Shown: in pieces, positions 5,345 to 63,651 of the stretch | Layout of the letters: the number at the start of each line of letters is the position of its first letter | How positions within the stretch are numbered: position 1 is the first letter of the stretch | NCBI GenBank assembly: GCA_040954595.2 | Contig: CM082590.2 | Location: forward strand, 6,138,001-6,202,000 | Reading direction: 5' to 3' | Length of the DNA: 64,000 bases | DNA from: Balanoglossus misakiensis | Lineage: Eukaryota > Animalia > Hemichordata | Position numbers and translations under genes: made by a program | The notes under the pieces: model-generated | Database searches by the model: none | Seen by the model: only the letters and a program-made list of their open reading frames with translations | What the model was told of the DNA's origin: nothing

Positions 5345-5374
5345 ATGGCTTCCAGAAAAGTCAAGGATCCACTG
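5345..5374 (+). CDS. Copy 1 exon 1 (MASRKVKDPL)
   Basis: ATG in context ATCATGG, then CTG|GTAAGT donor; the same exon and donor occur at 53594-53623. Confidence 0.75.
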
Positions 5375-8300
5375 GTAAGTGAACTTTTAACTGTAACAAC
5401 TGACATTTCACACCAAGGGCAACTCAGTCAGGCAGTGACGACAACTGCTTTATGTGCTTTATTTTTCTGAAGACTGCGTTTGAAAATTCACCCATTCAAC
5501 CCCATGCACATTTGACATGTAAAACCACTTTGAAAATTGTGTCACAAGACTTATGAATGCTACGTAGACTTGTGGCGTTGTATTCGTTTTATACGGTCTA
5601 AGTGGTTTAATTTTTTTCCAAAGGTCATGCTTGCTCGACCCACGAAAAAAATCAGAATTTTCAGTGTATGTATCCATTACAATATTTGTGCATTCATAAA
5701 AAATAACTTGGTTGACGATATGTCAAAATGATTACGACATTTCGTGGCTACTCCAACTGGAGACAAAAAGGATTTTTTGCAATTATATTTGTTGCATTTA
5801 TTAATTATTTTACTGTTATGCTGCAAGCAAAATTTATTGAGCAAGCTCTATATAAATCAATTGTTGAAATCCATGCCTGTGTTACTTTGTAACCATTCTG
5901 GCTGTGTGTCTTTATATAGGACAGTCTGAATTGACGCCATATCAAAGAATGATAACCTTTGACCTGAAATGAGTTCATTCAAGGTGACGCAGGCATGGTG
6001 TTGGTCATAAGGGGTCGTGGATAATTATTAATTCCCCATGAGCTGACTCAATCTTCTCCGTATCCTTTGCCGACAGACAACACGACAGGTTGATGATACA
6101 TGTGTGCATACCCACGAGTAAGCTTTTTAAAATGAACCAACCGAACTTTGATAGTAAAATCACGAAAATAATGCATGACGTGAGGCATGTCAAATGCAAC
6201 TATTTTCATTTAACCCAAACCCCTCGCTTAAGTTTGGAACAACAAAAAGCAATGAATATTTTATCCCCTCGACGTGTCTACACCGACTCTCTCTCCAAGA
6301 ACACATATTTGTTGTAACCCCAAAAGAAATGAAATTAAATCGGTGCGTGTGTAAACATAAAGTTGTGATATCTACTCACCATAAACATTATTTTCATCAC
6401 AGAATGTTTGTTCCAAAACTCGTGACACTAATATACCATATTGAAGATGTTGCTAATGAACGCTTTAATCCCAATTCATGCATCAATTCTTTTATTTATA
6501 ATAAACTGTTATGTCTACAAACCAAAAATGTTGAGGTACTAGCACATTTCAGTGTGGTTTGTTGTCTTCTGCCTTCATGTACAAGACTGAGGGGAGGGGT
6601 TATACACCAGCAAGTCCTCCATCTGTTCAAATTTACCAGTCAGACATTTTGTGTTCAGTAGTGCATTATGGGCCGGTTGTCGTTATCCTGGAATGTCGTT
6701 TATTGTTTTCGTTTTGTTGGAATTCCAGTATTTTTGTGATCAGAATTTCACCGATGGAATGCTTTCCTTTCAGCAATGTCTGCACCATGTTTTATCATTC
6801 GCGATCAAAACTCACAAACATTCACATTTTCCCCATCAAGGGATATTGTGCGCGTGCATGAATTATCCACAACTCCAAAGAATAATGGCATATAAATCTC
6901 GAAATAAGGGACTGGTCAGTTTCTTCGGCCTGGGGGAGGGGGGTGGATGGAGTCATGGGGAGGTCACCCTGTTTTGAAATTGGGTGATGGGGGGGGGTCA
7001 CCGGGGGTCACCCATTTTTCCATGTTCAAAGAGGGGGTCGGGTCAGTCACTGTTTGATATCCACAAAATAGAATCCACCCCGCAGGCCTAAGAAACTGAC
7101 AAGTCCCTAAGCGCTTACGGTTAACTACTATAAAAATGAGACATTCTAACCGATAGAAAGCAGCTTGTCTACGTCAACCGTGACTTTGTGGCTGATCACA
7201 ACGGAAACAAGTGTTATCTGTTTGGCCGTGTAGTGACAGCCGTGCTGTGACGTTCATTACTGACCGTCGGTTGTGGATTCCATGTTCTGACCAACAGGAC
7301 GACATCCCAAATCTGTAGACTATAACAATAGAGTAGTTGGACAGTCAATTGACCATAACCTTGTTCACGTTTCTTTTATGGATATCATGCAAGCCCTATC
7401 AAACAGTCAAAAATGCTTCTTGGGAAGCACATCAGCGAACAGGTATACAAAGCCTTCGCACGACCCACACACTACTACAGCTACACAATAACTTGCCCTC
7501 ACAGTTTGGACAAACATTCACAGTGATACTCTCATTTCATTTCTTCACCGTTCTCTTGAGACCGTTGCCTTATCATGAGTCCATGGGCTCATCCGGGCAT
7601 TTTCCAGTACATGTATCTATATTTTGGTGTAAGCCGTGTACGTTTATGTGTAATTAGAATACTTTCCCTTACGAAAAAATATTTTTGCTGGGAGATGGTT
7701 ATGAGTTTGCTGCCAATACCCAGCAGGCATATAGTTTGCAGATTGGCTGATAAGAGGGTTTGCAGAAGTTTGCAGGATTCTGCAAGCTCAATGCAAACTG
7801 AACAATCCCCAAACATGTTGTGCAGAGAATTCACAGCAAATCAAACTTGTGCAATGAATTTACAGCAAATAAAAACTGTTGCTGTGAAGTCACTGCAACT
7901 TGTTAATGGTCAGAATGAGCTTGTGATTTCCAAGCAATCTATAGGTTAAAGGTCACAACTACACTGTACAAAGAGATTGTCTGGGCCCAGTGTTAGTACC
8001 GGGTACATGGCTATGCTGTCCTATGGTCTCCATCCACACATTCAGCAAATGTGATCTACCATTGCTGACAATGAGGGGTGAGCAAAACAAGCACATTGGA
8101 TAGTAGTTTTTTACAAATTAAATGTTGATCAGGTTAGATTTTTGGCTCTGATTCCAGGATAGACCAGCAAATTATTTTATATTTATAACTATTCAAATTG
8201 AACTTGTGGATTAGTTACGAAAGTCACCAAGATGTCACAACCTTGTACAAGCTTGCTGCAAGGATGACACAACTTTGAAATGCTAGCTTTTAGCTTGTAT

Positions 8301-11300
8301 AAAGGTTTTACAAGCTTGGATAAGATTACGGCTTAAAATTACAAGCTTGAATACAGCTTGTGAACCGCCCCAGACAAGCTTGTATAATACACACAGACCA
8401 GTGTGTTTTAGATATATAGAAATTCTTAACACTGGTCCGGGGCCAGGCTAGGTCCCATGCATAGTGTACAAGATCCCTACATTTAATAAAGCATACTTTT
8501 TTTTTCCAAAAATGAGTATATTTCATGGTTACTCAAATCCTACTTCAATATTTTTCTTCTATAAATATCGTCAGTCGATCCTAACTCACAGTCGATCAAT
8601 GTTATAGCTGTGAGCTCTATTTCCGGTTATGACACGAAAATAGCGTTGTGCGCATGCGCTAGGTACACCCGCCATATTTTAACGGTTTTCTTGTTGTAAA
8701 CACTTCTAAGGATTATGTCGCGGTCCCAGTGTTCGTCAGACATGTTTATCATCCACATCCATTCGGAAAGGGCGATTTTATACCATCAGCGATGCTGCCG
8801 TTTTGATGAATTGATCGTTAAAAGATAGGTAAATCTTTCAGCTAGACTTTGCTGCATGTTGTCAGTCGCGTCCGTCCATACGGCATACTGTTCATTGTTG
8901 CTGTAATGGGCGCCGGCGAGTCAGTTCAGTTCCGTTAAAGACTATCTCGCATTTAGTTTTAAACACCAGGCAAATTTACTGTTACTTGTTGTCTGTACTG
9001 TTGGATATTGCAACGAAATGAACTATGTTTGCATTCTTAAAAATCATGAGTGAACGTGTTTAAATATAGAAGCTGATCGTCTTTGTATGTGCATTGAATG
9101 GCCAATGATAATTTATTTGACAGTTGTTTTTCGTAGAGGTACAATATTTCATGGTAAAAACTGCAATTTCTCAATCGTGCTACATCTGGAATGTACACTG
9201 AGTCTGAAGCAAAGGCTTTGTCATTGCAAAATCAACATTATTTGGAAATTCTTAAAGCAATTGTAAACAAAATAACTATCTTAAATCATGAACACCACCT
9301 TCGTAAATAGTGTAGGTGGGAAGTTTTTTAAGATGTAAAAATAACCTTTTATCTAATATTGCTTCATTTATTTTCAAGCAGAGAAAAAGTGTGTTTGTGT
9401 GTGTGTGTGTGTGGGGGGGGGGGGGGTTCAATGGTACCCCTAGTTAATTGGCTTTGCTGCAAACTCACTGCAATGTTCAAATTTCCAAGGTGGCAATCTT
9501 GATTGCTGTGAACTCACTGCAGTATTCAAATTGCTGTGAACTCACTGCAGTATTCAAAATCTTGTTGCTGGAAGTTTGCAGCAAATTTGCAAGTCCCCTA
9601 ATTTGCATGGTAAAATCAGGACTGTTTGCCACTTTGCAGCAGCAGTTTGCAGTGAGTTTGCAGAATCCTGCTGCAGATTTGCGGGAGGAGTTTGCAGCAG
9701 GCCCTTTTTAGGTCCCATTGGTATAGGCCTATATACCATGGGACCTTATGGGATCGGTTGCGTCTGTATGTATGGATGGATGTATGTATGTATGTATGTA
9801 TGGATGTATGTCCGTCCACATCAAAAACTTGAAAACCGCTGTGCGTATCACCTCAATATTTGGTGTGTAGGTGCAGGCTGGGCTGTAGATGGGAGTTTGT
9901 TCAAACGAAGTTGCCAGGCCCAAAAATATGCAAATTAGCCTGTAAAATGTGAAATTTATCAAAACTCTGAAAGTCAACAACTACTGGTCAGATTGCTTTA
10001 AAAATTGGTATGCATGTACCTTATGTCAACCTCACATCGACCTGTAAGTGTTAAGTTAATATCATGGATTTTTTATTTTTTATGAATTTTTTAGTCTTTT
10101 TATTAAATTTATAACTTTACTTATACCTCTATGGTTAAGCTATGTCCACGTCTTATTGTGGAATTCTGGTCTGTGCAATAGTCCTGTACAGTGACTGTCT
10201 ATTGGTAAGTAAGCACAATGCGGCCAAAATAAAAGGCGAATTTTTGGGCTCACCTGTAACACCTGCTTAACACATTAATTATGTGCAAACCTAATTCCGG
10301 GCTAACTAATAGGGCTAGAGGTTTGGTTTTTGTTGAACATGAACCAGTATAGGGTCAAAATTTCTTGCCCAAATTTTGCATGACCTCAGGTGACCTTTGA
10401 CCTACTTTACCATATCTTGGCATCCAGAGCAGGTACAGACTTGGCGTTTGGAGGGTTGGGACTAACATAATAAAGCCAAATTATGGGTCACCTGTGACAC
10501 CTGCATATCTCATTAATTATGTGCATACCTAATTCCAGGCTAACCAATAGGGCTATAGGTTTGGTTTTTGTTGAACATGGACCAGTATAGGGTCAAAATT
10601 TCTTGCCCAAATTTTGCATGACCTCAGGTGACCTTTGACCTACTTTTCCATATCTTGGCATCCAGAGCAGATATGCTTTTTGCTATGTTGCTATGTTCTA
10701 TGTTGGCTTGGGCCCGCTATTGCTGCTTGCAGCTATATTTTTTCTTTAAAAGCACATGCCAGATTGCTTTGCAATTTGACAGTTTATTGGGCATGTTCCT
10801 TGTTAATGTTGTTACATTCCATATTTCTATATCCTACGATCATATCTGCTTGCAATGTCGCCTGTAATTTTTATTCTGGTGTGTCACTGTTTCCGCATAA
10901 TCCTCAAATGGGACCACAGTGTCCTTGACGCTATTTTTTTTCGTTAGGGTTACCATATCATCGATGCAAAATGTTTATACAATGTGATGTAACAGTGCAC
11001 TTTCTTGGTGTTTGTGATTTTGTTTATTCATTATCGAAGATCAGTTCAAATACTGAAGAATTTTATATTTGACGGAATAATTAAAAAATAACAATTGTAT
11101 GTTTCACTGAATGTTATAGGATCTCATTAATGCCGCTGAGAATGGTGATGTTGCAAGGATTCAATCGTTGATAACTGATGGGTACGATGTCAATGCAAAG
11201 GGTGAATACAAAGGCTGGGTAAGTATTTGCACTGCCTCACTCAACATTTCACACGTACAACCAAGTCACACAGGTAACGAATCTGAAGCGGCAAACGTCT

Positions 11301-14300
11301 TGACCTTGACTTTATTGATGAACACAAACCTTTCCTGTGTTTGATATACCACCTGAATGCATTTGAAATAGAAAACGTGTCAAAAAATAAAGCTTGTTTC
11401 CTCCTTTGTTTCTCTTATATCAATTTGAGGTTACAAAGAAAAATTTGAAACCGAAACGAATAAGAACATAGTGTTGGATGAAATGTTCAATTATCTGTAT
11501 ATTGTGACCAGTAACAGTCTGTGGCGCGGTTGTTGACAATTCTAGATGGATGCAAATGTCATAATAAATGAAAGTGTTTACAAAAAAATTAAAACCCCAA
11601 AAGCGACACAACATAGAGATTAAAAATCCCACGTCGTAAGTCAATCTGGAATTCAGGTAAATATGGTCATGAAAAGATTGCCGTTGATTGCCCTTATAAA
11701 CAAAAAGTGCGGATTTCTTTAGTCTGTGGTGTTTGTATTACAAGTGTATTCTTCAGGCGTGATTTGAATCTTTGAGGTGGGGCAGCTGTTGATTGATTGT
11801 AATATTTATTTCCTCTGTCTCTTCGATGGATATCTTAGCTGTAGAAATTACTTGAGTGAATAAACACACATGTGTGGAGATTAACGTGTTATTGTACCTC
11901 AATGGACATAGAACAATGCCAGAGTAAGGACATAGTGCTTGTCTATGGGGAATACAGGGAGAATATCAGAGTCGTGACAAGGCCAGGCTGAAATGTTTCA
12001 TTTACGGACACCCGATGAATATGTGGAATCTGTGTCATTGCAGGCTGAAGAGTTGTCATTTGGACGATATCTTCATTTGTGAAGGAAACTAGTGATTGCA
12101 TGTGCCCCATGCATTATGAGCCATTGTAAGCTTAGGGACCGTCTCAGATTGTCACAAAACTAGCTGGTTAAATCGGATGTAGAATTAGGCGGTGTCTTTA
12201 CTATTGCTGATTCTTGGCTTTTCTGTTCGGAATGGGACCGTCCACCCGAGAACGGCCAAGACAGAGAACAGAACAGTCAAAACGATCACCAACGCCTAGC
12301 TCTAAATCTGATTTTAATCAGATTGGTCACATAAATTCAACAAGTAACGTGCTTATGTTTATTTGAAGGGCGAATTCAATTTGTTTAGTAAACTCCACTT
12401 TCACACTTATTTTCCTTTTGTGTTTTTTGTTAAATTCGGTGAACCAGAACGTTTAGAGTTTAAAATTGAAAAAAAAACATAGGTAATTTCACTTCCATTC
12501 AATGGATACTACAAACGCTTTTTTAAAAAAGACAAATTTGAGAGAAATGTCCAGATTGGTTTAAACAATTCTTTTTCTGATGTTTCCTAGCAACATTAAA
12601 TAATTATAACATTGATGTACCGTACGTACCAACGTTAGGTTCATAGCAGGCTATACCTAAATATTAACTTACATCAACAGAGAAACAGGGGATTGTGTGT
12701 GTCTGGTGTATCACGTCCGCCATGTTTATCTGTTAGAGTACTTGGTGTGATTGAAAATTTGAACATATCAATGTAATTTATGAAATGATATTAAGACCTG
12801 TTGCACCAATGATTGTGCATAAACATGTATAGTGCGCTACATTATATTAGAATTTTATAGTATTACACTTGTTAGAAATATCTACAGGACAGGTTATAAA
12901 TGTTCTCTGAAACAATAGAGTTTTGGTCTGAAACAACTATAGATGCTACACACATTTAACTCATAATATCAGTCAACACTTATAGTTACAAATCAATTCC
13001 AGTGAAATTATAGCCATGTAACCTTACAAGTCCAACATTGGAACATACCTTGTGTTCATTTTAATTCAAATGAATTTGTCAATTTCAGTCTGAATCCACA
13101 GCATTGCATGTTGCAGCCTGGGAAAATAAACTAGAAGCGGCACAAGTGTTGATCGACCATGGAGCTGACGTCAATGCTAAGGAGGTGGTAAGTGGCTTTA
13201 CATGCTCACTCACCAATAGCCCAAACGGCCAAAAAGGTGACACTGTACTTATATTTTGTAGTGTTGACGACATTCGGGATGTCAATCACGAAACTAGTGT
13301 TACTGCAATAAACCGACACACATATATACTAATATTATGCAGAGTATGAAAGAGTTTGAGGTTAGTTTTTGGTCCGTGGCTATGTGGAATTCTTATATAT
13401 GTAACCCAGAGTTTGATTTGGTTATTCACAACACAAGTCAACATTCAAGGTCAACAACAAGAACAGATATCGCACAAATTTTTAGCAGTCAACAGTATTG
13501 CTATTTTATTGCTATGATAACTAGAGAACTATCTAACAGAAATATGGGTCGCTTTACAATGATCGAAACACTGAATAAATGACTTGCATAGAAATCCACT
13601 AGTCCACTGTGTTATCACTGAAATACTAGTAAGTCCAGTGTTCATCAAAACAGAAACCCTACAGTCTATTCAACTTAGCTGTTCCGCTAAACCGTGAACG
13701 GATCTGGCTGTGTCAACATCGTAAATCGGGTCCCTGGCAACCGGCGAGTCCTGGCCTGTGTTGTCACGATCTACGTTGCAGACGAGTATCCCTCCACACA
13801 CGCAACGGGTATTTTCCTATACACACGCACGCATCTAGGGCTTCCCACTCGGGCTTGCAATAGTATACAATCCACAGTTCCGAATTCAACACTCAGCACA
13901 GTTCTGTAGATTTCAAATAAAACTGTTCGAAAGACATCTCATTTTGTAAACAAAGATGATGGGTCATTCACTTAGAAACGTGTACATGCGCATACTACAT
14001 ATGGAACAAGTACACGCAGTCACTGTGCCCAACCACCTTTTTTATACAGTGGTCACGTAACATGCATTTCTAGGGACCTTAGAAAAATCTATTTTTAATA
14101 CATTTTCCGAAACGCGCCTTGATTTCACAGGCGTTTTAAAGTTTCTAAAATGACGCCATGGTTATGACAGAATGTATGCGCCTGCGCAAGTTTCTAGGTG
14201 AATGACCTTTCAAAATGGTTGGGCAAGCAGAGTTTGTCTGGACAGAGAGATAGCGATTTTTTCCGCATTTTTAGGGATCGATTGGGTGAGTTAGGTAAAA

Positions 14301-17300
14301 GGAAGGCGTCGATCGATTTTGTGAGCACTGTGAATGCTTGGTGTGAAGTTTGAGACTCTGGAATTGCCAGCAACCACTTTATTTCGTCGATTTCAGAAAT
14401 GTTTACCAGCGAGAGCTTTCCTACCTTTAATCTCTTTATGTGTCAGTGGGGTATAGGCAGGCTAGGCCCGAACATTGCGAGAGCGCTCGTTTGACGCAAA
14501 TTCGGGAGATCGTCTAAGCTACTGATTTATCGTTTTTTAATAGTCACTTTACAATTAATAAAAAACTGAAATAGCATCTACACAAGCGCCTGTGGTTCAA
14601 AGGTCAAACTAAAATGGCGTTACATAAGCCACCGATTGTTTACTGAAGGTCAAATATAAACACTGTAAACAAACTACAACTTCAAACTTTCTTTCTAAAA
14701 TTCTGGTAATAACCTAGTCCGGCCGCAATACTAACTACGGTACTGAAACCACGAGGTTGTTTTCTCAAATATGCTCCGAACACGGCAAAGGACAAAGGCA
14801 CTTCACAGCAATAACAATGCTTTGACCTTACAAGTCATTTAACATTTAAAGGGACAAAGTCTCTCTCGCTGCCCTTTTTCCAATAATTTTGTTTGATACA
14901 AGACAGCGTTTATGTTATTCTACATGTGGATATATAGGGAATCAACGTTCGACCACACACAACTTCCATCCCACTTGCAGACATGAGAGTGAAAAACTTG
15001 CCAAAATGAATAATCAGTGTTTACCATTTTTTTCATTTGGGCTGGATTTTTAATCGCATATGCTACAAACGGGATGGAAGTTGTGTGTGGTTGAACTTTG
15101 ATTCACTGTATATCCACATGTACATTAAAGTAAACTGTGTCTTGTATCAAACAAAATTAATAAGAAAAGGGCAGCGAGAGAGAGATGCTCGATTCTGCAT
15201 CACAAAGAATGAGTTAACGTACCTGTAGGTTTCAAATAAAACTGTTCGAAAGACCAACCACACCGTCTCTGGGCCATTCCCTAACAAGAAACGCTGCAAA
15301 TTTCAAACACTTTGTCCACAAAAGTGTTAACCATCAGCGGGCTAAAACTTGACGGTCTCACATTGTTTTATATAGGAAAAGTCATTACGTGACTGAAACT
15401 TTTATCACGTGACCCTATTTAGCGGGAAATGATCCTCCCTTGGGACAGTATATCACATGACTATCACATGTTTTATTTTGTAAACCGGGTTACATATATT
15501 TTTAGACGAACGAATTCACTTTTCAGTATATCGAGTGAGCCATATATAGTGTGACCCACGCCTAACTGTTTATCTGTTCACAAATGCTCAATATAAGCCT
15601 ATAATAAGTTTCGCGATGTTGGCTAAACAGCCCTGGACACTTGCCATAACACGGTCGGTCGATGTCTTGAAAAATTATTCTGTATTTTGCATAAGGGCAA
15701 GGAAAATTTTCAGGGGATTTAACCTGACAAGTTTATTTCTCTGTATTTGTACGAATCATCTAGTGTAGGCGTTTCCGGGTAAAGTTTATTATTACCGTAA
15801 AGGGCGTATTACACAAACGGGCGTCCAGTGTAGATTTTTGGAAAGCAAAACACGTTCCGGATCTTCCGTTGCACGAGCAAAGTGGAATTAAAAAACTTTT
15901 TCGGATCTTCAGTAGCTGTGGAAATGCAGCTGTTCCACCGGGGGGAGGGGATATACTAATTCCCCGCATCTCTCTCTCCCCCTCCCGGCAGAACAGCTGC
16001 GTTTCCACAGCTGTATGTCTTCAGTCAATCTGATTAAAATCAGATGTAGGGAACGGCGACGTGTTTTTTTTATGCTGTCACCTCACACTACATCTGACCA
16101 ACTCTCAATAGAGATCCCGCTAAACTCTCGCGTTCCGACCCGGCCAATCAGATTGCGTGTTATGCCGACTAAAGAATTGCACTGGGAGATGGGAGAAATG
16201 TTGTTGTTGACTTCGAGTATCGCACAGAATACGAAAGATTGGCTTTCTCTTGTGACCAATTACATGTAATCCCATGGTATCTTTCTTTGTTTGGCGTCAT
16301 CGTATGCGAGTGGTTTTCGTAGAGCAGTGAAACGTCGAGCTGTAGCCATATACAAATGATGAACTGTCGTTGATCATTTATAAACTCTCCTAACAAGTCA
16401 TGTTCGCCCTCGTAGTCATGCTGCCAGTGACGTACTTCATGTAAAAGTTTATAAAAAATAAACCAAATTTCACTGCCATGTATCCCTAAACAATTTATGT
16501 GACAGATTTTTAAAAAAGAACGCTAACTTCGGCTAAGGAATGTCAAGTCATAGCTCCGCGTTCAGGTCTGTGTGTTCCCGACGCACCACAGCCCTGCATA
16601 AGGCCCCATAGACAAAACTGGTGCGTCTGCGGTCCGGACCCGGACGCCCGACCGCAGCTTTTTCTGTCGAAATTCGATTTTATCGAAGCAAAATCCTTTC
16701 CCTGTCTACTTCAACCGACCCCAAATATGATGCGATTAACTTCTTCTAACGTCCGTGTAACGACAGAATCTCTCCCTGGGACGGCCTTACACAAATGTAA
16801 TCGATTCTCTAACAATTTTACTGCGACTTGTTGCCACATTTCGTTGACTGGTGGAATATAGAGGTTCAGTCGTCACGCTGAACTGGCTCGAAACCATTCC
16901 CCACGCTGATTCGACTCTCGCGCCCGGGATATATGTCTGTGGTAGCTCCATGGTAACAACCGCAAGGGGCCAGGTCATGTGATTGTGGGTTGCCTATCAG
17001 GCGCCTTCTGATTGGATTAGAATCCCAGTAATTCTCGCAGAGTTCAGCGAGATCTCTATTGAGAGTTGGTCAGATGTAGTGTGAGGCGACAGCATAAAAA
17101 AAACACGTCGCCGTTCCCTACATCTGATTTTAATCAGATTGGTCTTCAGTTGACAAGTCCAGATTGCTGGCTGTTGGGAAGCCCTACAAGTTCAACAGTA
17201 CGATCGCAATGTTCCTGTTAGAATTTGGCTTGCCTTTGCCCCATATTACCGAAGTCACACGTTATTTTATTTTATATACCTTCCCACCAAATGTTGCCGA

Positions 17301-49300: not shown

Positions 49301-52131
49301 CGTTGACTCCGATTGACTCGTTAGCGACAAGAGGGAGGACAACAGTAGTACAGGGATGGAAATCAAAAATAGGATTGACCTGTCTAAAACTGCTTGTCAA
49401 TGTGGGTCTTATAATTTATGGATATTATATGTCAACTTAAATTAACCTACTTCAAGTTGGCGTTTATCCGTCTTATGACCTAGTTAATGTTTAAGTTAAT
49501 TTTTTATCAATACACGGGCGGTTATCCAACGTGTGACAAAAAAACTGAGAAGTCCCGGTCTCCCATGACGACATTTTATTTACAATTTTTCTGGTTACAC
49601 GTATTACCTCTTTCGCTGATTTGTTGTAAACTAACTTTATATGAGCAGCAGGTCCTAGCTTGAGATAAAACACCTGTTGAAATACATGCCTGTGTTACTT
49701 TGTAGTCATTCTGACAGTGCGTCTATAAACATGGCAGACCGGAGTCATGCAATAAAAACGAATGATGACCTCTGACCCCACATGAGTTCCTTCAAGGTGA
49801 CGCAGGTATGGCGCCAGCCTTTTACAATATATGTGACAGCTGGGCTGACATAGCTATATAATGTGCTGTAGACACAATTTCGTCTGACTGGGCCTGAAAT
49901 TTAGGCCTGTTCTGGCCCAATTTTCTAAAAAAATATACCCCTTGAAATACAATATTCTACCCAATATGTCATGATTTACTGTATACTTGTTCGAGCGGTG
50001 TCCTTTTGACAGTCAGACCTTAGCGACTCCACTGAAGTCTCCGGATAATAAGCGGACACGGGCACATGCATTTACACACGGTCACTCCTCGACTGTTTTT
50101 TACACCAAGGCCGAAACAGAGCAGCGAATCACCATCAATCACCAAACACTCACGGAGGACAGCGATCTGCTGTAGAAAAAAAATAATACAAATCGGCAAG
50201 GCAAAGTAACGGTTAAAATTTGCATTTCGATACATTTATGAGACGCACGTTCTGATTGGTTCCATTTCGCCAGCGCTCGAATAGTCTAGGAGTTGTGATG
50301 TAACTAGCACCCCCTTGTAGTCAATCATATAAACTGAACACTGGTGATTGGGTGTTACATTATAGTGAAGGTGGGGCTAATTTGAAATTTTACCCATCCT
50401 TAAGTACACATGTATGTATATCATTTGTCCAATCCTACGAAAAATAGTCTGGGATTGACTTCAGAGGGACGCTAGTTACATCACAATTCCCAGGTTTTAT
50501 TGGGCCAGTGGCATGTAGAAGCATGCATGACTCTAGACATAATTTTGAAAGCAAAATACGGACAAAATACGGCTAGATACTAAACTAGTATAATTAAAAC
50601 CATGCGAAATAAATCACGGCCTCTTTTGGCAACTCAGAAATTGTTGCTCTAAAGGGGCCATGGTTGCGACAATATTTTGCCAAACAGCTGTAGCTCACGA
50701 TAATTCCTGACTTTATCGCGATCCTGTTGAAAAATGTTTGTAGGTACTTGATTGTGGTGGGAGTGTTTTTCTGCCGACTAAACAAACACCCTGTGCTATA
50801 TATTAAGTGTGGTGAGTGGTTTCCGTCAAAGTCTATACGCGTAAAGCCAATAGAACAAACAGTATTTAATCTTTACGACCCAAAGTAAACTGCTTCTGAT
50901 ACGTACCTGTACATACCAAGCTGAACAGACAGCATACCAATAAATTTCAAACTAAACCATCAGAATATCGAAAACAACAATACCTAAAGAATAGTCACAG
51001 AAACCTCATGAATGGAAGGTCAAACTTATGTTCTTGTGTGGGCAGGGATGTCATTTACACTTCTTTACTTAGTACATGAGTGAGTGTGAATGCGCTGATA
51101 TGAACAACAGTTCAATCGATGTTGGTACGTAATTAGGAACAATAGCCAAAGTTTAAGTTTTAATTTAAAAAGTATGAATGCAGTTGAGCGGTGCTGATAT
51201 CAATTACACACTGGACACTGGTACACATGGAGTCTCACTGACTCCAACATGTAATCAGATGCAAGTGCAGGCCATTCTCTGTTGATAAGAGCAATAACAT
51301 TTGCCGACAGTTTTATGACAACTGGTCAATGTTTGCCTAAAATTGTTTGCCAACGTGGGTCTTATACTGCTGTTCTTATCGGTGCGTGTGTTGTGGGTCA
51401 CGTGTCAATTGCCCTTCTTTAAATTCTCAAGAGCTGCCACTTTTTGCATTATTTTCATGATTTTACTTTCCAACTTTAGATTGGTCCATCTAAATAAGAT
51501 TAAACTTATAGGTATACATAAACATCTTATTGATGCCATATTTCGGCTGGATGTTGCAATTTGAACAATTGATATATTAAATGGTGCCATGCCTGTTTAA
51601 TCTGCCTCCATACAAATAGTACACAACTATTGTGGTATGCAAGTAGTGTGCCTTGATGGTGCAAATTGTAATGGGGATATAGGGAGAAGATCTTATGTAT
51701 TTTATTGTGAGAAATAATGTGGAATTTGGCAATTCATGTGGCGTCAAATATGTCTCACTTTACAAATTCTAGATTGATAAGCCTCTTCAATTCCCCCATT
51801 TGTCTTGAATTTTATAGTTAGGGCTGGCCCACTTAATTTCTTTTCACTCTGGCAGCAAACTTGTTTCCAGAAGTTTTTTTGCTGAAAGATTCTGACTGCT
51901 GATTAATAATTGATGTAACCTGCGTTACAGCAAACCATCAAAATACATAATTTACAATGTTTCCCCCACTGACCACATCAACAAGTGTTGATAGGTATGA
52001 GTACCGGAATTTCTAATCTTGAAAATTGTTGATGTGTTTTAAAAGGCAAAAAGTAATAAACTGGCCAGTTTAGTCTTCTGATGGGTCAGTCCAGTGACTC
52101 ATGAAACAACGTGGTAGAGATTATATCGCCT
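43390..52131. repeat. Large tandem segmental duplication: ~43390-47205 is copied at ~48150-52131, built from older sub-repeats that extend back to ~39300
   Basis: Collinear near-identity, e.g. AGCAAAGCGGACAAAATAC at ~43405 and ~48160, and GTAGAGATTATATCGCCT at ~47187 and ~52114. Confidence 0.9.
47403..47690 (-). mobile_element. Fragment of a HINE-like element (3' end on the minus strand)
   Basis: AAAAAATAGCGTCAAGGACACT is the reverse complement of the 3' stem-loop end at ~10918-10940. Confidence 0.45.
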
Positions 52132-53593: not shown

Positions 53594-53623
53594 ATGGCTT
53601 CTGGAGACGCTAAGAATCCACGG
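53594..53623 (+). CDS. Copy 2 exon 1 ([10 protein letters not shown])
   Basis: ACCATGG start context; CGG|GTAAGT donor; homologous to 5345-5374. Confidence 0.75.
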
Positions 53624-56600
53624 GTAAGTGAACTCTTAACTGTAGCAACTGACATTTCACATTTCTGGCAGTGACGCGTACGACGGCTGTTTTTATGAGT
53701 GGTTTACATTGTGTTTGTTTTGTGGACTGAGGACTGTTGTTCAAAATTTCTCCCTTCAACCCCATGCACGTAAATTTAACCAGACATTTTGGTCACAAAA
53801 CAAACGACTGTTTCGTTAAGACTTGTGACGCTAGTCGGTGCCTAATAGGTTTATTTTTTTTCAACGGGTCAGCTTGCCCTACACACGGAAAATATAGAAA
53901 CTTCTAGTGTCTGTGTGTATTGCTAGATAGTGCATTCATAAATAAACAATTACCCAGTTGACAAAAAAGTCACACTAATCACAATGTTTTCCATTCACAA
54001 GTCCAAGTCTCCATTGAACGATATTTTTTCAAAAAATTATTTTACCGGTTGAGCAAGTCCTAAGTAATCACTATTTTTACGAGCAAGTTCTAGCTTTAGA
54101 TAAAACACCCATTGAAATCCATGTCTGTGTTAGGCCTACTTTGTAACCATGTCTAGCAATGTGTCTATATATGGGGCAGTCAGATTGACGCCATATCAAA
54201 TGATGATAACCTTTGACCCGAAATGAGTTCATTCAAGGTGACGCAGGCATGGTGTTGGTCATAAGGGGTCGTGGATAATTATTAATTCCCCATGAGCTGA
54301 CTCAATCTTCTCCGTATCCTTTGCTGACAGACGACACGACAGTTTGATGATACATGTGTGCATACCCACGAGTAAGCTTTTTAAATAACCTAATCGAACT
54401 GACCATTCTGAAGGAAGAATTGCATCACGTATATGTTAGCGTCGTATACATGTTGGTCCAAACCCTGGGAAAATAATATGCCGTAGTGTTTGTACTTTCC
54501 GGGTTTCTGCTAGTTTCCGTTGACTTTTCATTGTGATGACGTCATGTTTACTTCGCTTTGGTTTTGATACATTCAGTTTGAAAAAGTGTTGACTGAGTAA
54601 TTTATTCACGATATTTCGCGATAAAATCACTTACAAAATTGTATCTCCTTGTCTGTAATAACATGGACGTTTGCACGAACGCATCGCGCAAATGTCAATA
54701 TTATAAAATGTATAATAATGACTAATTAACTTGGGACTACATTGTACACACCAACGACAACCAAGAAGGAAACATTTAAGTGATTCTTACGGATTTGTTT
54801 CAACGGTCGACATACTTCCTTCATGATTGTCTGGCATGCAGTGGCTACCGATGCTGACCGTTGATGACTCTGTATTCAGCTCAACAGGTCAAAAACCCTT
54901 TCTGTGTTACACATATTGCATCGCGTAAATGTCGATATTATAAAATGTATAATAATGAAGTAATATTTCAATGCGATGTCGCAGTTCTTTGTCAAAATAT
55001 ATTATTTTAGCTATCACTTTGTCAGTCTTTGCGAATTAGGTTTTTCAGAATCAAGGATCTGAAGAACTTTGATATATTTAATGGAATACACAGAAACATT
55101 AACAATTGCATATTTCATTGAATATTATAGGATCTGATTGATGCTGCTGGGGATGGTGATGTTGCAAGGATTCAATCGTTGATAGATGATGGGTACGATG
55201 TCAATGCAAAGGGTAAATACCTTGAAAAGAGTAGAGGCTTCACCTGGGTAAGAATTCACCCTCACACTTTTACAACGTCATGTCGCAGTAGTAACTAATA
55301 TGATATAGAACAAACGAATTGTCCTTGAGTTTCACTGATGGACTAAAAACCTTTCATATGCTAGTTAAATTCAATTCAGAAGATTTCCAGTCTTTTAAGT
55401 TTATATTTCATGTCTGTACTCACTAACACACACAAAAAATATTTCCATGTTGTTTTTCTTAAAGTAATTAAAAATACACATTGTAATCAAGACATAACAT
55501 AAGCTATTTGATATTTTAAAGAGAGGGGTAACCAAGGTGGGAAGTCGTTTTCCCAAAATCAATTATTTCTCCTCGCCTCGATTCGACGAATTTCAACGAT
55601 CCCGTAGACCATTCATGCATAGCTCCTTCAAAAGCATCCAATCTTCCGAATATTTCGAGATCAACTTGAGGAAATGTCAAGCGAAGGTCAACTCTGTTGC
55701 CGACCGAGAGTGTAGCCTGCTTTGGTCACAATCCCTCATGTAAGCAACAACTAGTATTTATCTGGCTTTATTTTGCTGCACCAGTAAAGAAAACTAAATA
55801 TTTTTCCAAAGCTAAATTGTCATGTGACTTTTAAAAATTAATATCTCTTGAAAATAGGGCTAACATACTTAGGTTACTAACACTTGTTGTGCAAGGACAA
55901 CACAAAATATGTTGGAGAAAAAACAATTTGAACGAAGTGAAATTGATGATTACTCCCACTTTAGTACTTTAATTGGTTTTGAAATGTCAATATTTGAGAA
56001 GATTTTGCCGATTCAGTTGCAACTTTGATATTTTCTTTCTCAAAACATATTTTTTTAATTGCGAATAAGATCAAAACCTTAAATTTGGAGAAAAGTCGTC
56101 AATTATGACAGATAGTCATAAAAACAATTAACTTAGGATCCAATACATAAAATATATAATTTGCATAAGTCTAAAACGAGATATTTTCACATATTCAATG
56201 ATTGTACTCTTTCTTAATTTAATTTACTCGTCCAGTGACCCCAAACATTTAGAGTTTAAGATTGTATAAAATGTAGTAAGTGATTCCGGTTCCATTCAAT
56301 GGATACAAACATTGTTGCAGTGATGTCCCATGCCAATATTGGGTTCATAGCGGGCCAGACTTCAACTTACATCAACAGAGAAACACGAGGGATTGTATGT
56401 GTCGGGTGTATCACGTCCGCCATGTTTATCTGTTAGAGTAATTGGTGAGATTGAAAATTTCAAGATGTCCCATGCCAATGTTGGGTTCATAGCGGGCCAG
56501 ACTTCAACTTACATCAACAGAGAAACACGAGGGATTGTATGTGTCGGGTGTATCACGTCCGCCATGTTTATCTGTTAGAGTAATTGGTGTGATTGAAAAT

Positions 56601-59600
56601 TTCAAGATGTCCCATGCCAATATTGGGTTCATAGCGGGCCAGACTTCAACTTACATCAACAGAGAAACACGAGGGATTGTATGTGTCGGGTGTATCACGT
56701 CCGCCATGTTTATCTGTTAGAGTACTTGGTGAGATTGAAAATTTCAAGATGTCCCATGCCAATGTTGGGTTCATAGCGGGCCAGACTTCAACTTACATCA
56801 ACAGAGAAACAGGGGATTGTGTGTGTCGGGTGTATCACGTCCGCCATGTTTATCTGTTAGAGTACTTGGTGTGATTGAAAATTTCAACATATTCATGTAA
56901 TTTACGAAACGATATTAAGACCTGTGGGTCCGATGAGTGTGCATAAACATGTATAGTGCGCTACATTATATCAGAATTTTATAATGTTACACTTGTTAGA
57001 AATATATATAGGACACATTATAAATGTTCTCTGAAACAATAGTGTTTTGGTCTGAAACAACTATAGATGCTACACACATTTAACTCAACACAGTGAACAC
57101 TTACAGTTAAAAATCAATTCCATTGAAATTATAGCCATGTCACCTTACAAGTCCAACATTGGAACAAAGCTTGTGTTCATTTTAATTCAAATGAATTTGT
57201 CAATTTCAGTATGACTCCACAGCATTGCATGTGGCAGCCCGGTACAATAAACTGGAAGCGGCACAAGTGTTGATCGACCATGGAGCTGACGTCAATGCTA
57301 AGGATAGGGTAAGTGGCTTTACATGCTCACTCACCAATAGCCCGAATGGCCAAAAAGGTGACACTGTACTTATATTTTGTAGTGTTGACGACCTTCGGGA
57401 TGTCAATCACGAAACCAGTGTTACTGCAATAAACTGACACACATAATAGGATTATGAAGAGTATGAAAGAGTTTGAGGGAGAGTTTTTGGACCGTGGCTA
57501 TACCTGCGGCCAAGTTAAATTCTTATCTCTTTTCAGACCAACCAATTCACTTTTGAGTATCATACCACTATAAAGCAATATTTTATTAAAACGTCGAGTA
57601 ATTGGAGAGGTTGGGATCAGAGTGTTCATATCGAAATTCATAATTAGATTTTTAGATAAATAATCTACCAATAATTAACTTTCTGACCGGAAAGTTAGGG
57701 ACCTAACCATGAACTATTGCTACATGCACGATAACACATTTATTTTATATTTAAAAAAACTGTAGTGTAATAGCTGTCAGTAACAACGGTGAAGCGAAAT
57801 AAAGCTCCGAAAATAAATAATTGTAAATTGTAGGGGTGCCATGTATCCTGCACAACAGGCCGGGGGGGGGGGGGGGTTCTCCCATAGGAAGGTGTACGGG
57901 TATGTGCCACCCAGAAGGGTCACTTTTCCAACGGAAAAATCCCAACACTCGGGATGACTTTTCAACCGAAAATCTACAAAGTGGGATTCTTTCATAAACC
58001 GTCATCACCTCGCTTTCAGTCGAAGTCGCGGCCAGGCACACGAAGGGCGCCACAAGCGGCGACGCTATCTCCGATGCTCGATTTTTGTGGCTTCACCGCT
58101 GGTGGCGCACTTCGTGTGGCTATGCCATCGAATGACAGAGAGAGAGGTCTGGCTGGCGAGACTAAAAAAAGTTGTCTGGCTGAAGTCCAACATAAACATT
58201 TGAACGTCAATAGTGGTTCCGCATATTTCTTACCTTTCATTCATAATTGGCGTTCTTTGATTGGCTAATTCCAATGCTCTATTAAGGGGTAATGAAACTG
58301 CTGTCTAGGCTTTTATAAAATTTAGATCATTGACAGTTTGAGGTATTGTACAGAGGGCATCTTCAAATGAAAACAACACACGCGCGTATCATAAATCTCA
58401 AGTAAAAGAATATCTGTGATGTTAATGTACCCTCAAAGGACAGAGCCATATCACCACATCATGCATTCATGTCCATTACGTGGGGGACTGGGATGTATCC
58501 TGCTATTAATTGATCCGCCCCCCCCCCCAAAAAAGTGTCGGCAACACATGTTGTGCCATCTCAAAATGAATGTTTCAGAATGTGTGTTACAGTGCATGCT
58601 TAATGAAACATTGCGTGTTCCAGTTGAAGGTTATAGTCAGGGATTTTCAGTGACACCTTTTTGTTGTATTCCCACAGATTGGTCAGGCACCGTTACACCT
58701 TGCAGCATTGAATGGTCATGGTGACGTGGTGAAACTTCTACTGCAATCCAATGCCTGCATCGATGTGAAGGATAATGTAAGTTAATGTAATTCTATTCTA
58801 CACTCATACATCAGTGGACACGTTTTATTACCAATAACACACATTTTTGAACATAGGCTAATAAAAATAAATAGTTAACATCTATCCCTCTGCCACGTTC
58901 CCAACGACCCAGACTTTACAACCTATTTAATGATGACAGCCTGTCTTGTATAATTATGCAGTGTTTACACAAGATTAAAAAAAAGAAATCAATCAGTCAG
59001 AGCAGGAAGTGTTGTTTGTTTTTGTTGAATGTGAGATCAAGATCAGCAGATTTATATTATTGTAAATATAAATGTCTATTGTTTAATTAAAGATTGTTTA
59101 AACATTTAATATTATAATTTATATAAGGCATGTGTATAATCTCATGAAAAAGCAATAGTAGAAAAGAGTATTTTAGCAAATCTCAAAGATTTCCTGGGAA
59201 GGAACAGATGCGTATAAATGTGCGCACTTTACAAGTTTATGTTCTACGTGTGATACAGGCAAGTTGTTTTCTTTTCAAAATCAAAACGGTGGCACCCCTT
59301 CCGGGCACAAAACTAACTACTCGATCGGGCACTTCTGACACCCTACTCCGAGAGAACCCCCCCCCCCCACCCCCCCCCCCCCCCAGACAGAGAAAAATCA
59401 AATCTCGAACAAAACTATCGACAAATCAAGGAAAACGCGGAATTCCAGTGTCTGACCGGAACAGGATATGGCGACACTGAACATAGAGAAAACCAAAATG
59501 CTGGAAAAACTCGAACGCGTGGAGCGAATGATCACAACGCAACCGTGACCAGATCTCCGGATACGGAGAAAACATCCGCTCATTACTCCATGCCCGATTT

Positions 59601-62600
59601 AATAAACATGGCCTCAGACGAGAAGGGCGTCTATCACCTATTTCGCACAGGCAACCTATGGTCACAGTGCCACCAGGCGGTCGTGATTGTGCAACACATT
59701 TGACAAAGGCTGGTACACGTCACAACTAAGTCTTGTAAAAGCGTTCGTACAAAATCTGCAAATATAAATGCGTCAACCCACAAACCTTCACCATTCAGTT
59801 CTGCTTTCTTGCTAAACCTGCTCTTCAATATTAATAAAACTATGTTTACCAGACTTGAACTGCATTTCACCAATTAAGAAGATAACCAAAAAAGCATAAG
59901 AAAAAATTAAGGAGCTTTGAGATGTTATGGCAAGGTTGAGACGGAAAAGGGTATATATATATTTTACAAACCATTCCAGAGAAAGTGTCACATATTCCAA
60001 TCCTAACATAGAGAGAATCCCACTTAATCTTTGCAATGCAATTCAGTTAATGAGGGTTTCACCCAAGACACCTTTCATTGGCCTAGAATTTTTGCCATGA
60101 TTTATGGTTCAGATAAAGTCCGCCCTCACCTCGCACTCAAGCTCGCTGAGCTGGCTCTCATGATTTCTCCCCGTTGATTTGTCTGAAGATACCATGATGG
60201 AACACTTTAGAACAACGGAGAAAACATTCTAGACTTCCTATGCTTTTAAAAATTAATGTACGACTTGTATCGATAGATAAAGGCAAGCTTATGAAATGCC
60301 CTTATAGATACACACAACATTTTGTATCAGGTTGTCATGATCAAGACAGAATCAGGAAAAGGTCAACTCCCCCCTGAAATATCAAAGACTTAATTAATTT
60401 AAACTCAGGCGACCTTTACTTCTTAAAATAATTTCGCTCACTCTCATTTTCGGGATATTGTGTTTCAGACTTATTGGTTTTTCGTTGCCTATAGTCGCGA
60501 AGACGGACACAAATTAGCACCTATGGCATTGTCAATCCAAACATGACCCTACATGTGCAATGCCCGTACAATACCCGTCACTCAGGTTTTAACCAAACTC
60601 TTTGAAATAATCACGGCGATTAAATTGTTACCCTGAAACTTTGCCAAATTCAGTTTGACCGCACTAGTTGTACGTTGATCATAATCCTAAAGATAGAAAA
60701 CAAATAAGACTTGATGAAAACTGCATTACTTCACTTCCAAGTGACTGACGCTATAAAAGTAAAATTGGCTGTTGCAGGGCGCCACTAGCGGTGAAGTCAG
60801 GTAGAATGGACGTCTGAGTATTATATGTAGTCGCTGAAGTAGATCCCCGGCGCGCTTTACACAGTGAAGTGTGAGGCTATCCATTACATTTGTTGTATTC
60901 TCTCGTATATTAACAGTCGTCGGCCATGCGTTTCCGAAGAGAGTTGAAACATAGTTTCGTTTGGTGATTTATTGTCATTTAGTGGAATCGGTGACCACCG
61001 TACACCCATTTTGCCTGAAATTTGCTTAAAATATGGCGGTTTTTAATTGTGGACACAACTGACTGTTCCTGTTTAAGTTTCGCCCGTAGGCAAGAATTTT
61101 GTGTCATTCCTGAATTTTTCGCGTACATCCGCGAAATTCCAACGTTTATCACCCAGTTTTCGGTTGATATTATCGGGTACTTCAGGTGGATGGTTATCTG
61201 CCGTGAGAGTTCATAAGATTATTCTGGCTCCCCAACATGCTGGCTGACTTTGTGAAAATGATTCTTGTTTTGTTTTCATTCAATGGCGGTGAAGTTGTAG
61301 ACAACATAGTTTTAGACATCCAAACCACGTGTACTGTTTTGGCCAGTGGGGAATGATCCTTTTATTACAGCTTTAACAAACATAAACCAGACTGTGACAA
61401 GAAGCAACATGGCATTACGTTGGTCGCTCTCGTGGCCATGTTATTTGCCAGTGCATTCATGCACAGACAATATTTTGCGAGCTTTGGCAAGCGCTAGACT
61501 TGTTTATAACGAACAGTGCTTATAATTCATAAGCACTGTTTGTTTTTGTGCCTTCTATTATAACATTAAAGGGACAAAGTCTCTCTCTCTCTGCCTTTTT
61601 TTTCCATTAATTATATTTGATAAGAGACAATGTTTGTTCTTCTACATGTGGATATATAGTGAATAAACGTTCAACCACACACAACTTCCATCCCTTTTAT
61701 AGACAGGAGAGTGAAAAAACTCGCCAAAATGAATAATCGTTCTTTACCATTTATTCATATTGGGCGAGTTTTTACTCTCATATCCTACAAACGGGGTGGA
61801 AGTTGTGTGTTGTTGAATGTTGATTCACCATATATCCACATGTAGAATAACATAAACGGCGTCTTGTATCAAACATAATTAATGGAAAAAGGCCAGCGAG
61901 AGAGAGACTTTGTCCCTTTAAAGGTAATCTCTTGCATACTGACCAACTTTAAGCTGTCCAGATAAACATTTCAGTAGGTCTGACAGACAAACAAGAAAAA
62001 CCAAACGATAAACACTGTTATATGGCTTCTTATATTTTAGGATGGCGAAACCCCTTTGGATTTAGCAGTAAAATTGTTAAAGGTATGTATCTATCAAGTC
62101 CAGACATGGTGGTAGTGTTATATCCTTGATCAAAACACTTGGTCAAAGACAGAACATCACCGCAAATCCTTGTAATTGCTTGTAAACGCACATTTAGTAA
62201 ATAATGCTTGGCAGGACAGACGTTCTAATGTCGGAGTCAAGCTTCTTCACAGCCCCGGAACTTGAATGGAATCAAAAAAGCTCAAAAACCTACTCTGGAT
62301 AAAATGCTGCTCACACACTACTGCAGGTTTCTATTCAATACACACGCAGGATAAGTCATGTGATTATAACTACGTTTTTTTCTATTTGGAGTTTTATCTT
62401 ACAAATTCACATTTTAAAAATCGCTTAAAATGTGCAGTTGTTCGAGTTTCCGGACAATCGATCGTACTCATAGTTTCACACAAAGCAAATCATGAGATAG
62501 CATTCCAGACTCTTCACCGCTATTAAGACATGATCAATCGAATAAGAGGATCAAGAGCAATGTTTACTTCCTTATGGTTATCAAACACAACATTGTCATA

Positions 62601-63651
62601 TATTGGGCTGTCACCATGATCAAGTGTTGAAATTTGACAGGTGAGCATACCTTTCAACACTGAATGGAACTAAAGTCTAAAACATTCTAATTATCTGGAA
62701 AGTGAAATTGCATATGATCTAAACATTATATGCTCAAATCATAGGTTCCTATTACATGTCAAACACATCAGAGGATCAGTTTTAAACATTTCGGACACCG
62801 AAATCCATGAGATTCGAAGTCTGTTCTGTCAACCGGTCTTTGAAAAAAAAATATACAATACAAAATATTATGATTAACCCTTTGTTTATCCGATAATAAT
62901 TGTCTAACTAGCTAATATCGCTTCAATGGTTAAAGGCTGATGTACGATCAATCACAGACGTACATAATAAAACAGGCCATGCAGATTTTATGATGTTTAA
63001 CTTATACACTGCAGTGTAGGATTTGTGTCAACACGCCTCTAAGGGTTTCTGCCAAACTTTTATGCTAGGTTTCCTAAACACATTTATGGGCAGTATATAA
63101 CAGTTGTAGCCAAAATGGTTGATTAGTCTGAGAACAATCTTTTTGTTGATATTACATCTACTTCTCCCCCTAAGATAAAATTTTAATAGATTAAACATAT
63201 TTATAATTATCAAAAGAAGTGGTCTAGATATTAATATATTTCAAAAAATATGTATTCTTATTTCAACCCACATAGTATGGCTACAATGAGAAAATTTGTG
63301 TCAACACACCTACCGGTATAAGAGATTCTGCAAAACTTTGTTCATTTGAGACACTTATGCTCGGTTTTCTGAACACATTTATTGGCAGTGCATAAGAGTT
63401 GTAACTAAAATGGTTGATTAGTCTGAAGTCTGAGAACACAGATTTTTGTTGATATTACATCTACATCTTCCCTAAGATGCAAATCCTAATAGATTTAACA
63501 TAGTCATAATTATCAAAAGAAGGGATCTAGATATTAATATATTTAAAATATTATGTACTCTTATTTCAACCCATAGGATTACTACACTGAGGAAAATCTG
63601 TGTGCCACATTGGTGGTGCTCTCCTGTTTGCGCGTGTCACTCACAACCAAG
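53594..63651 (+). CDS. Ankyrin-ROCO paralog, copy 2 (5' part; LRR-Roc-COR exon expected just beyond the window). Exons 53594-53623, 55131-55247, 57210-57308, 58678-58776, 62041-62082, 63577-63651
   Basis: Collinear homology with copy 1 exons and adjacent introns; splice sites and reading frame intact. The window ends in sequence matching copy 1's last intron (~30110). Confidence 0.85.
55131..55247 (+). CDS. Copy 2 exon 2, ankyrin N-cap, 6 aa longer than in copy 1 ([39 protein letters not shown])
   Basis: TATAG|, 117 nt, TGG|GTAAGA. Confidence 0.85.
56322..56887. repeat. 142-bp tandem repeat x4 in copy 2 intron 2
   Basis: Repeated small ORFs at 56393, 56535 and 56677; one copy at ~12630-12765 in copy 1. 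Confidence 0.95.
57210..57308 (+). CDS. Copy 2 exon 3, ankyrin ([33 protein letters not shown])
   Basis: TTTCAG|, 99 nt, |GTAAGT. Confidence 0.92.
58678..58776 (+). CDS. Copy 2 exon 4, ankyrin ([33 protein letters not shown])
   Basis: CCACAG|, 99 nt, |GTAAGT. Confidence 0.92.
61570..61917. mobile_element. Kolobok-like palindromic MITE
   Basis: TTAA|AGGGACAAAGTCTCTCTC ... GAGAGAGACTTTGTCCCT|TTAA (TTAA TSD with RR...YY ends). Confidence 0.8.
62041..62082 (+). CDS. Copy 2 C-cap exon ([14 protein letters not shown])
   Basis: TTTTAG|, 42 nt, |GTATGT; homolog of 27504-27545. Confidence 0.85.
63020..63600 (+). repeat. ~300-bp tandem duplication of the intron end and acceptor before the copy 2 linker exon
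   Basis: TTTGTGTCAACAC...TCTAGATATTAATATATT...TCTTATTTCAACCCA(CA)TAG occurs twice; it is single in copy 1. Confidence 0.85.
63577..63651 (+). CDS. Copy 2 linker exon ([25 protein letters not shown])
   Basis: CCATAG|, 75 nt, |GTGAAT; homolog of 29881-29955. Confidence 0.75.

Follow-up and report, generated by a model that had tools for sequence, protein, structure and literature searches.

The 64-kb stretch of DNA from the acorn worm Balanoglossus misakiensis analysed here (contig CM082590.2, positions 6,138,001 to 6,202,000; 'the window', numbered from its first base) carries two tandem copies of a gene that joins an array of ankyrin repeats, each on an exon of its own, to a leucine-rich repeat (LRR), Roc and COR module without a kinase. 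We find that substitution between these copies, and across the wider family to which they belong, is concentrated on the predicted binding face of the ankyrin repeats and runs well above the neutral rate, in line with an initial annotation of this DNA that had named surface substitution as a source of diversity. On the evidence of sequence, we consider it probable that this multi-copy, kinase-less ankyrin-LRR-Roc-COR family serves as a set of intracellular sensors of foreign proteins, whether these come from pathogens or from other non-self sources.

Substitution at the predicted binding face

The two copies share two internal ankyrin exons, E2 (13089-13187 in copy 1 and 57210-57308 in copy 2) and E3 (18609-18707 and 58678-58776); these and all other window exons named below lie on the + strand. 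We number the repeat so that its TPLH motif occupies positions 6-9 and count changes at positions 2, 3, 5, 13, 14 and 33, which we take to be the DARPin-type (designed ankyrin repeat protein) binding positions and which were fixed before counting. Over E2 and E3 together, 15 of 36 bases differ between the copies at the six binding codons, compared with 10 of 162 in the framework (Fisher p 4.5e-7) and 71 of 871 in the flanking introns (Fisher p 1.5e-7). With pN at 0.46 and pS at 0.09, change at the binding codons is about five times as frequent as in introns and at synonymous sites, and relaxed constraint alone is therefore no explanation.

The pattern extends to four non-overlapping exon pairs, where residue changes fall on 13 of 24 binding codons and on 12 of 108 framework codons (p 1.3e-5). 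A published ankyrin library randomises positions 2, 3, 5, 10, 13 and 33, assigned there to the binding surface formed by the beta-turn and helix 1 (PMC4308713), and with this set the same four pairs give 14 of 24 versus 11 of 108. The excess substitution covers repeat positions 2, 3, 5, 10, 13, 14 and 33; changed binding codons are separated by unchanged ones, and six of them carry two or three base changes. The evidence for selection consists throughout of counting tests.

Variation and copy number across the family

Three sequencing runs from one sample, X1, X2 and X3, contain the gene, and we compared contig pieces covering a 231-base E3 region (227 from X1, 125 from X2 and 8 from X3). E3 proves hypervariable at its binding-face codons family-wide: among 40 listed of 48 variants, 34 are exonic and 6 lie in 132 intron bases. 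Twenty of the 34 fall on 6 of the 33 codons (p 1.5e-7, or 1.3e-5 with all 8 remaining variants taken as framework), and four further exonic ones are at position 10. Counted by base, 13 of 18 binding-codon bases vary among the listed variants, versus 6 of the 132 intron bases. Position 13 alone specifies Ala and Leu in the window, Trp and Glu in loose ends and Gly in X3, and its codon begins with C in six X1 contigs. Two diploid loci allow four codons at one site, and the at least six seen here, if a single animal was sampled, call for more than two loci.

How many loci there are can be approached through contig depth. In X1, four of the eight longest E3 pieces have a depth of 23-27 and a 411-nucleotide (nt) contig of the Roc exon reaches 940; in X2 the corresponding values are 44-48 and 2,134. 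In X1 and X2 alike, the rarest contigs of the family are about 40 times shallower than the Roc-exon contig, which suggests some 40 haploid copies or about 20 loci, while the intronic contigs of X1 (124-196) taken as the unit of depth yield only 5-8 copies. The copy number that we claim is several to about twenty.

Four of the seven X3 records listed, read by eye, hold exon-exon joins at predicted boundaries: an E2-type exon to E3, E3 to another ankyrin exon, E3 to a C-cap-like exon, and E3 to a second E3-type exon. The last of these, whose joint spans 45 letters (6 + 39), represents an arrangement present in neither window copy. These four types are not assignable to single loci, and for the one between E3 and a C-cap-like exon a gene of the copy 2 type is as good an explanation as exon skipping. 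X3 is without cover over the E3 intron flanks and most intronic bins, which fits RNA and which we do not use as evidence; in X1 and X2 the pieces continue across these flanks, with no exon-exon join among the loose ends listed (12 more are outside that list). We read the X3 joins as derived from transcripts, the alternative being processed retrocopies.

Gene structure and exon turnover

Copy 1 opens with a 30-nt start exon (5345-5374; ten codons, an ATG and a GT donor) and continues with an ankyrin N-cap exon (11120-11218), E2, E3, E4 (22158-22256) and the four exons T5-T8 (25987-26085, 26318-26416, 26648-26746 and 27026-27124). Each of these ankyrin exons is 99 nt long and in phase 0, and the internal ones, like those of copy 2, are preceded by a pyrimidine-rich acceptor. 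A 42-nt phase-0 C-cap exon (27504-27545) leads to the intronless LRR-Roc-COR exon of 3,207 nt (30281-33487), and the longest open reading frame (ORF) of the window, its sole long one, is at 30200-33484 (+). Joined, the copy 1 exons encode 1,356 residues in the order ANK(8)-cap-LRR-Roc-COR with no internal stop, across six GT-AG and four GC-AG introns.

Copy 2 follows 48 kb downstream and has the same orientation. Its start exon (53594-53623) is homologous to that of copy 1, its N-cap exon (55131-55247) is 117 nt long with six extra residues close to the exon end, and E2 and E3 are followed directly by a C-cap exon (62041-62082). Homology to copy 1 continues up to the end of the window, base 64000 matching copy 1 position 30107, about 170 nt short of the acceptor, and for this reason we infer a Roc-COR exon for copy 2 just beyond the window end.

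All nine internal ankyrin exons exceed the Pfam Ank cut-off (in copy 1, E2 at 2.4e-8, E3 at 4.2e-10 and E4 at 1.3e-6; in copy 2, E2 at 3.4e-10 and E3 at 8.9e-10). The two N-cap exons have no Pfam match and score 6-8 bits with an ankyrin profile built from the window, which was seeded with seven of the nine internal exons and gives those nine 27.8-74.4 bits and, over all six frames, nothing above 9.0 bits outside them. Since the + strand holds 76 open stretches of the form AG-99 nt-GT/GC, exon length by itself is weak evidence; it is the ankyrin match together with the splice sites that carries the claim. The layout given by the initial annotation is thereby upheld: one phase-0 exon per repeat in two tandem copies (99 nt, or 117 nt for the copy 2 N-cap), eight ankyrin exons in copy 1 and three in copy 2 with the N-cap counted, and, in copy 1, splicing onto one intronless LRR-Roc-COR exon without a kinase. 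To it we add the start exon, the C-cap exon and the four GC donors. The GC donors belong to all four T exons, and one is also found on an ankyrin exon (538-636) of a distant relative, L004; they may be ancient and a possible target of regulated skipping.

Comparison of the copies shows how the arrays came to differ. Shared intron blocks are 73-91% identical and are separated by unrelated intron sequence and several-kb indels. Both E4 and the T5-T8 array are missing from copy 2, with homologous intron kept on either side of each, and they therefore represent two separate whole-exon losses or gains. T5-T8 match one another at 82-93 of 99 nt and, judging by this identity, are recent tandem duplicates, copied as a 331-nt unit of exon and intron together; E2, E3, E4 and the T exons share only 40-62 of 99 nt with each other and by the same measure are old exon types. 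The initial annotation had envisaged more than two copies and a repeat number that varies through exon gain and loss. Both expectations are borne out, the first by the codons at position 13 of E3 (for a sample of one animal) and by the E3-to-E3 join, and the second by the same join and by the eight exons against three.

Conserved relatives with the same gene structure

A metagenome scan returned nine loci out of 262 candidate stretches. Five of the nine have intronless LRR-Roc-COR ORFs of more than 1,000 codons, four of these with ankyrin-like exons upstream, and protein identity is 74-81%. Phase-0 ankyrin exons of 99 nt occur in L003, L004 and L005, and one of 93 nt in L001, L003 and L005. 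Between equivalent ankyrin exons of L001, L003 and L005, each pair shows 13-18 synonymous codon differences and 0-4 residue differences, and the binding positions show at most two Lys/Arg swaps. The layout of ankyrin exons with an intronless Roc-COR exon is thus, as far as these sequences tell, old and compatible with strong purifying selection. One exon per repeat had been taken as a sign of diversification; the layout itself is real, and being shared with conserved relatives it is by itself no evidence of diversification. The argument from structure becomes weaker and the argument from selection stronger. The same relatives provide a before-and-after comparison for the passage from a signalling gene to a diversifying receptor.

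The LRR-Roc-COR exon and its relatives

In the last exon of copy 1, Pfam places Roc (57.9 bits, 1.5e-15) and COR-A (60.6 bits, 2e-16), both above cut-off, and LRR_4. It finds no kinase, WD40 or death domain in copy 1, whose ORF ends at 33487. COR-B is recognised by structure (Z 11.8, root-mean-square deviation 3.2 over 136 residues to 3dpu), and Roc is directly followed by COR, as defines a ROCO protein. The motifs at exon residues 260, 283, 304, 371 and 470, which we take to be G1-G5, are intact and conserved in 44 aligned rows. Here the 'constant GTPase module' of the initial annotation needs qualifying: the G-motifs are conserved, and 4 of the 9 Roc-exon variants listed are non-synonymous, leaving a module that is not invariant. 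One X2 contig carries an in-frame 6-nt insertion at 30748, in the LRR region.

The AlphaFold model of this exon has a mean pLDDT of 81.4, and its best Foldseek matches are LRRK1, LRRK2 and the C. tepidum Roco. The last ~190 residues (32900-33484) are confidently modelled as a small alpha/beta domain, with conserved Cys, His and Trp common to the aligned homologues; two long helices flank a variable Ala-rich loop. This post-COR domain has no Pfam match, no Foldseek match at E<=0.001 and no ESM Atlas match beyond leads at 0.77. VIA-align likewise gave no fold, with a list filled by COR-B that barely probed the domain. Hydropathy gives no support to a transmembrane or pore-forming reading of it: the best 19-residue value in the last exon is 1.67, with no strongly hydrophobic segment.

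A homologue search gave 46 matches overall. The closest, over Roc, COR and the C-terminus, are from Ptychodera flava (53-54%; XP_070549552.1 and XP_070550673.1), Glandiceps talaboti (51%; XP_077978787.1) and Saccoglossus kowalevskii (43%; XP_006813508.1), all of the same subfamily and on the same side of the tree. Next come 37 unnamed proteins at 29-34% identity, and then MFHAS1-like proteins, whose matches, with E values of 2e-4 to 4e-4, extend over only 15% of the query; a search among proteins of 3,321-5,000 residues returned mostly unrelated LRR proteins. In a quick tree (SH-aLRT only, 46 rows, with P0042-P0044 and P0078 excluded), the window sequence groups with Ptychodera and Glandiceps at a support of 97 (four rows including the window), and a hemichordate group of six rows has 81. 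That tree holds two MFHAS1-like rows, which fall far outside the window group across a long branch, and no LRRK, DAPK or bacterial Roco rows. The different domains, the weak and partial MFHAS1 matches and the long branch agree that this is not an orthologue of LRRK, DAPK or MFHAS1, a possibility that the initial annotation had left standing.

The hemichordate database proteins contain from about one to about eight ankyrin repeats. They are named automatically, as 'probable serine/threonine-protein kinase roco5/roco11' or as uncharacterised; a kinase domain was not found in them, and the literature searched gave no account of their selection or exon structure. A longer nemertean relative has many ankyrin repeats. 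Two relatives carry additional N-terminal domains: a Saccoglossus protein (P0076) has three DED domains, FN3 and a coiled coil ahead of ANK-Roc, and a Glandiceps protein (P0002) a whole small GTPase ahead of ANK-Roc-COR. These could be real effector fusions or merged gene models; if the former, the DED domains point to cell death. Relatives P0024-P0041 cluster as close paralogues, some of them (the pairs P0026/P0027 and P0031/P0038) with longest contigs of equal length, hinting at independent tandem expansions of the subfamily in other organisms.

Surrounding non-coding DNA

Between the copies, the interval from 39 to 52 kb has no ORF longer than 137 codons and no match to the family, and Rfam has no match in the window. 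An apparently non-coding 4.8-kb tandem duplication (43392-47204 and 48149-52131, 89-94% identical) lies between the two genes. It is made up of modules repeated within it, and one of these recurs in the first intron of each gene copy. A GC-rich array of a 136-nt unit in 6.4 copies (3953-4824) precedes the copy 1 start codon by about 500 nt, and a 142-nt unit present four times in intron 2 of copy 2 (56322-56887) occurs singly in copy 1 (12629-12769). Elements with terminal inverted repeats are found at 16026-17141 (103-nt arms, 97% identical) and 41630-42203 (68-nt arms, 97%), and a 350-nt foldback occupies one intron position in copy 1 and another in copy 2 (14840-15185 and 61561-61925); all of these are likely non-autonomous DNA transposons.

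Interpretation and alternatives

If these genes encode sensors of foreign proteins, the concave ankyrin face or groove of each paralogue would bind a different, fast-changing foreign protein, and its capture would alter the GTPase cycle of Roc-COR, through nucleotide states and between monomer and dimer, a cycle proposed for other Roco proteins (PMC6337361). With the kinase missing, the conserved Cys/His-rich C-terminal domain, or else a partner protein, would relay the signal. The sources of diversity would be germline ones: gene duplication, the gain of phase-0 exons by duplication and their loss by deletion, and positive selection; nothing that we found points to somatic rearrangement. A bolder proposal, which we advance tentatively, is that acorn worms, deuterostomes related to the chordates, possess an undescribed class of intracellular immune receptors, in which about twenty ROCO GTPases would act as a natural DARPin library: binders re-tuned by positive selection, single-repeat exons gained, lost, exchanged and possibly alternatively spliced (the GC-donor cassettes), and signalling through the Cys/His-rich C-terminus. 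If true, acorn worms would have a GTPase-based animal counterpart to NLRs.

Several observations weigh against sensing of foreign proteins. The copy number is drawn from contig depth, which is no copy number as such; X3 is recorded as 'DNA?', itself a guess; and the Roc module, with non-synonymous changes among its listed variants, is not invariant. Profile, tblastn and blastn searches found in the window no stray or decayed ankyrin exons, no spare-exon reservoir of the Ectocarpus kind and no Roc pieces. Moreover, a binding face under positive selection would suit allorecognition or the recognition of gametes as well. The diversification could be real and its target lie within the species, through allorecognition, recognition between gametes or a conflict with selfish elements; an identical selection signature would be expected, and fungal repeat-array NLRs with such a signature are known from allorecognition (PMC13449251). 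We nevertheless consider this unlikely, as the last exon lacks a strongly hydrophobic segment and the start exon does not resemble a signal peptide, which fits a cytosolic protein better than one of the gamete surface, and as many paralogues are indicated rather than one polymorphic locus.

Could the same data come from an ordinary signalling gene, recently amplified, in which the least-constrained surface residues vary and short gene-conversion tracts bring in changes from older paralogues? The exon layout is ancestral, few exon pairs are compared in the window, and positions 2, 3, 5, 10 and 13 are described as high in entropy in natural ankyrins generally (PMC4308713). Relaxed constraint cannot surpass the neutral rate, however, and the binding codons exceed introns and synonymous sites about fivefold; conversion tracts alone would not give changes at separate codons with unchanged ones between them; and the conserved relatives keep their binding positions fixed. 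We regard this explanation as decidedly improbable. Even less can be said for the idea that a single locus is represented twice, its two haplotypes set in tandem by the assembly, with the read variation coming from a pooled sample. Marine invertebrates are often highly heterozygous, and the sample is not recorded as one individual. Against this stand the 73-91% identity confined to blocks, with unrelated introns and several-kb indels between them, the ~40-fold depth of the Roc-exon contig in X1 and X2, and an E3-to-E3 join found in neither copy, and we hold an assembly artefact to be very improbable indeed. Sensing of foreign proteins thus remains our preferred reading of the family.

Comparison with known systems

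LRRK1, LRRK2 and MFHAS1 are conserved genes present in few copies. LRRK1 and LRRK2 have the same ANK-LRR-Roc-COR order (PMC6337361) and give the best structural matches, whereas the family described here is without their kinase, WD40 and armadillo regions. MFHAS1 is likewise kinase-less, but has an N-terminus of LRRs only where ours has ankyrin repeats; DAPK1 has an N-terminal kinase, a C-terminal death domain and no LRR, while here an LRR is present and neither kinase nor death domain is matched. The ROCO surveys of Marin 2008 may list ankyrin-ROCO architectures. Exons of 99 bp in phase 0 are common in ankyrin genes; the literature searched for them yielded nothing. Elsewhere, ANK-ROCO architectures are noted for oomycetes and Gonium (PMC11378527), and at least 17 ROCOs for Trichoplax (PMC4104024).

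One parallel in mode of evolution is with the LRR-ROCO candidate immune receptors of brown algae (Zambounis et al. 2012, PMC3341825; Teng et al. 2024, PMC11378527), which share a Roc-COR without kinase, an exon for each repeat, paralogues in clusters and diversifying selection on the repeat; Ectocarpus has 37 such loci, clustered, with one LRR per exon and under diversifying selection (PMC3341825). Our genes likewise form a clustered multi-copy family of variable repeat number, with diversifying selection, as judged by counting tests, on the binding face of the repeat. The unit differs: in the brown-algal genes it is a 72-nt phase-2 LRR exon, as reported there, whereas in our genes a 99-nt phase-0 ankyrin exon takes that role and the LRRs are fixed within the intronless exon instead of each having its own. 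The algal genes are further described with spare exons in non-coding DNA, of which none was found in the 64-kb window, and with a conserved post-COR region, perhaps a new domain, that resembles ours by description only; the host here is an animal.

A second parallel is with fungal NLRs that carry highly conserved ankyrin repeats, reported (Dyrka et al. 2014, PMC4986451) to vary in repeat number and to show positive selection at the concave face and at the hairpin. Those proteins combine a NACHT or NB-ARC ATPase switch with an N-terminal effector and C-terminal repeats, whereas here the switch is a Roc-COR GTPase and the repeats are N-terminal, each on an exon of its own that belongs to one of several old types. 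The P-loop belongs to a Roc domain, not to NACHT or NB-ARC, which keeps the family outside NLR/STAND proteins and leaves the claim of functional likeness unaffected. By analogy, the genes described here would work like both the brown-algal LRR-ROCO and the fungal ankyrin-NLR candidate receptors. If they do sense pathogens, they would add a GTPase-switch class of receptor to the immunity of invertebrate deuterostomes. They also offer a kinase-free system for asking how N-terminal repeats control a Roc-COR switch, an open question for LRRK2.

In the literature searched, with subscription papers and supplements outside the search, we found no diversifying ankyrin-ROCO family in animals, and neither repeat-diversified ROCOs nor hypervariable ankyrin sensors in hemichordates. 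Repeat-diversified ROCOs have been proposed in brown algae, and hypervariable ankyrin sensors among fungal NLRs; what appears to be new here is their combination.

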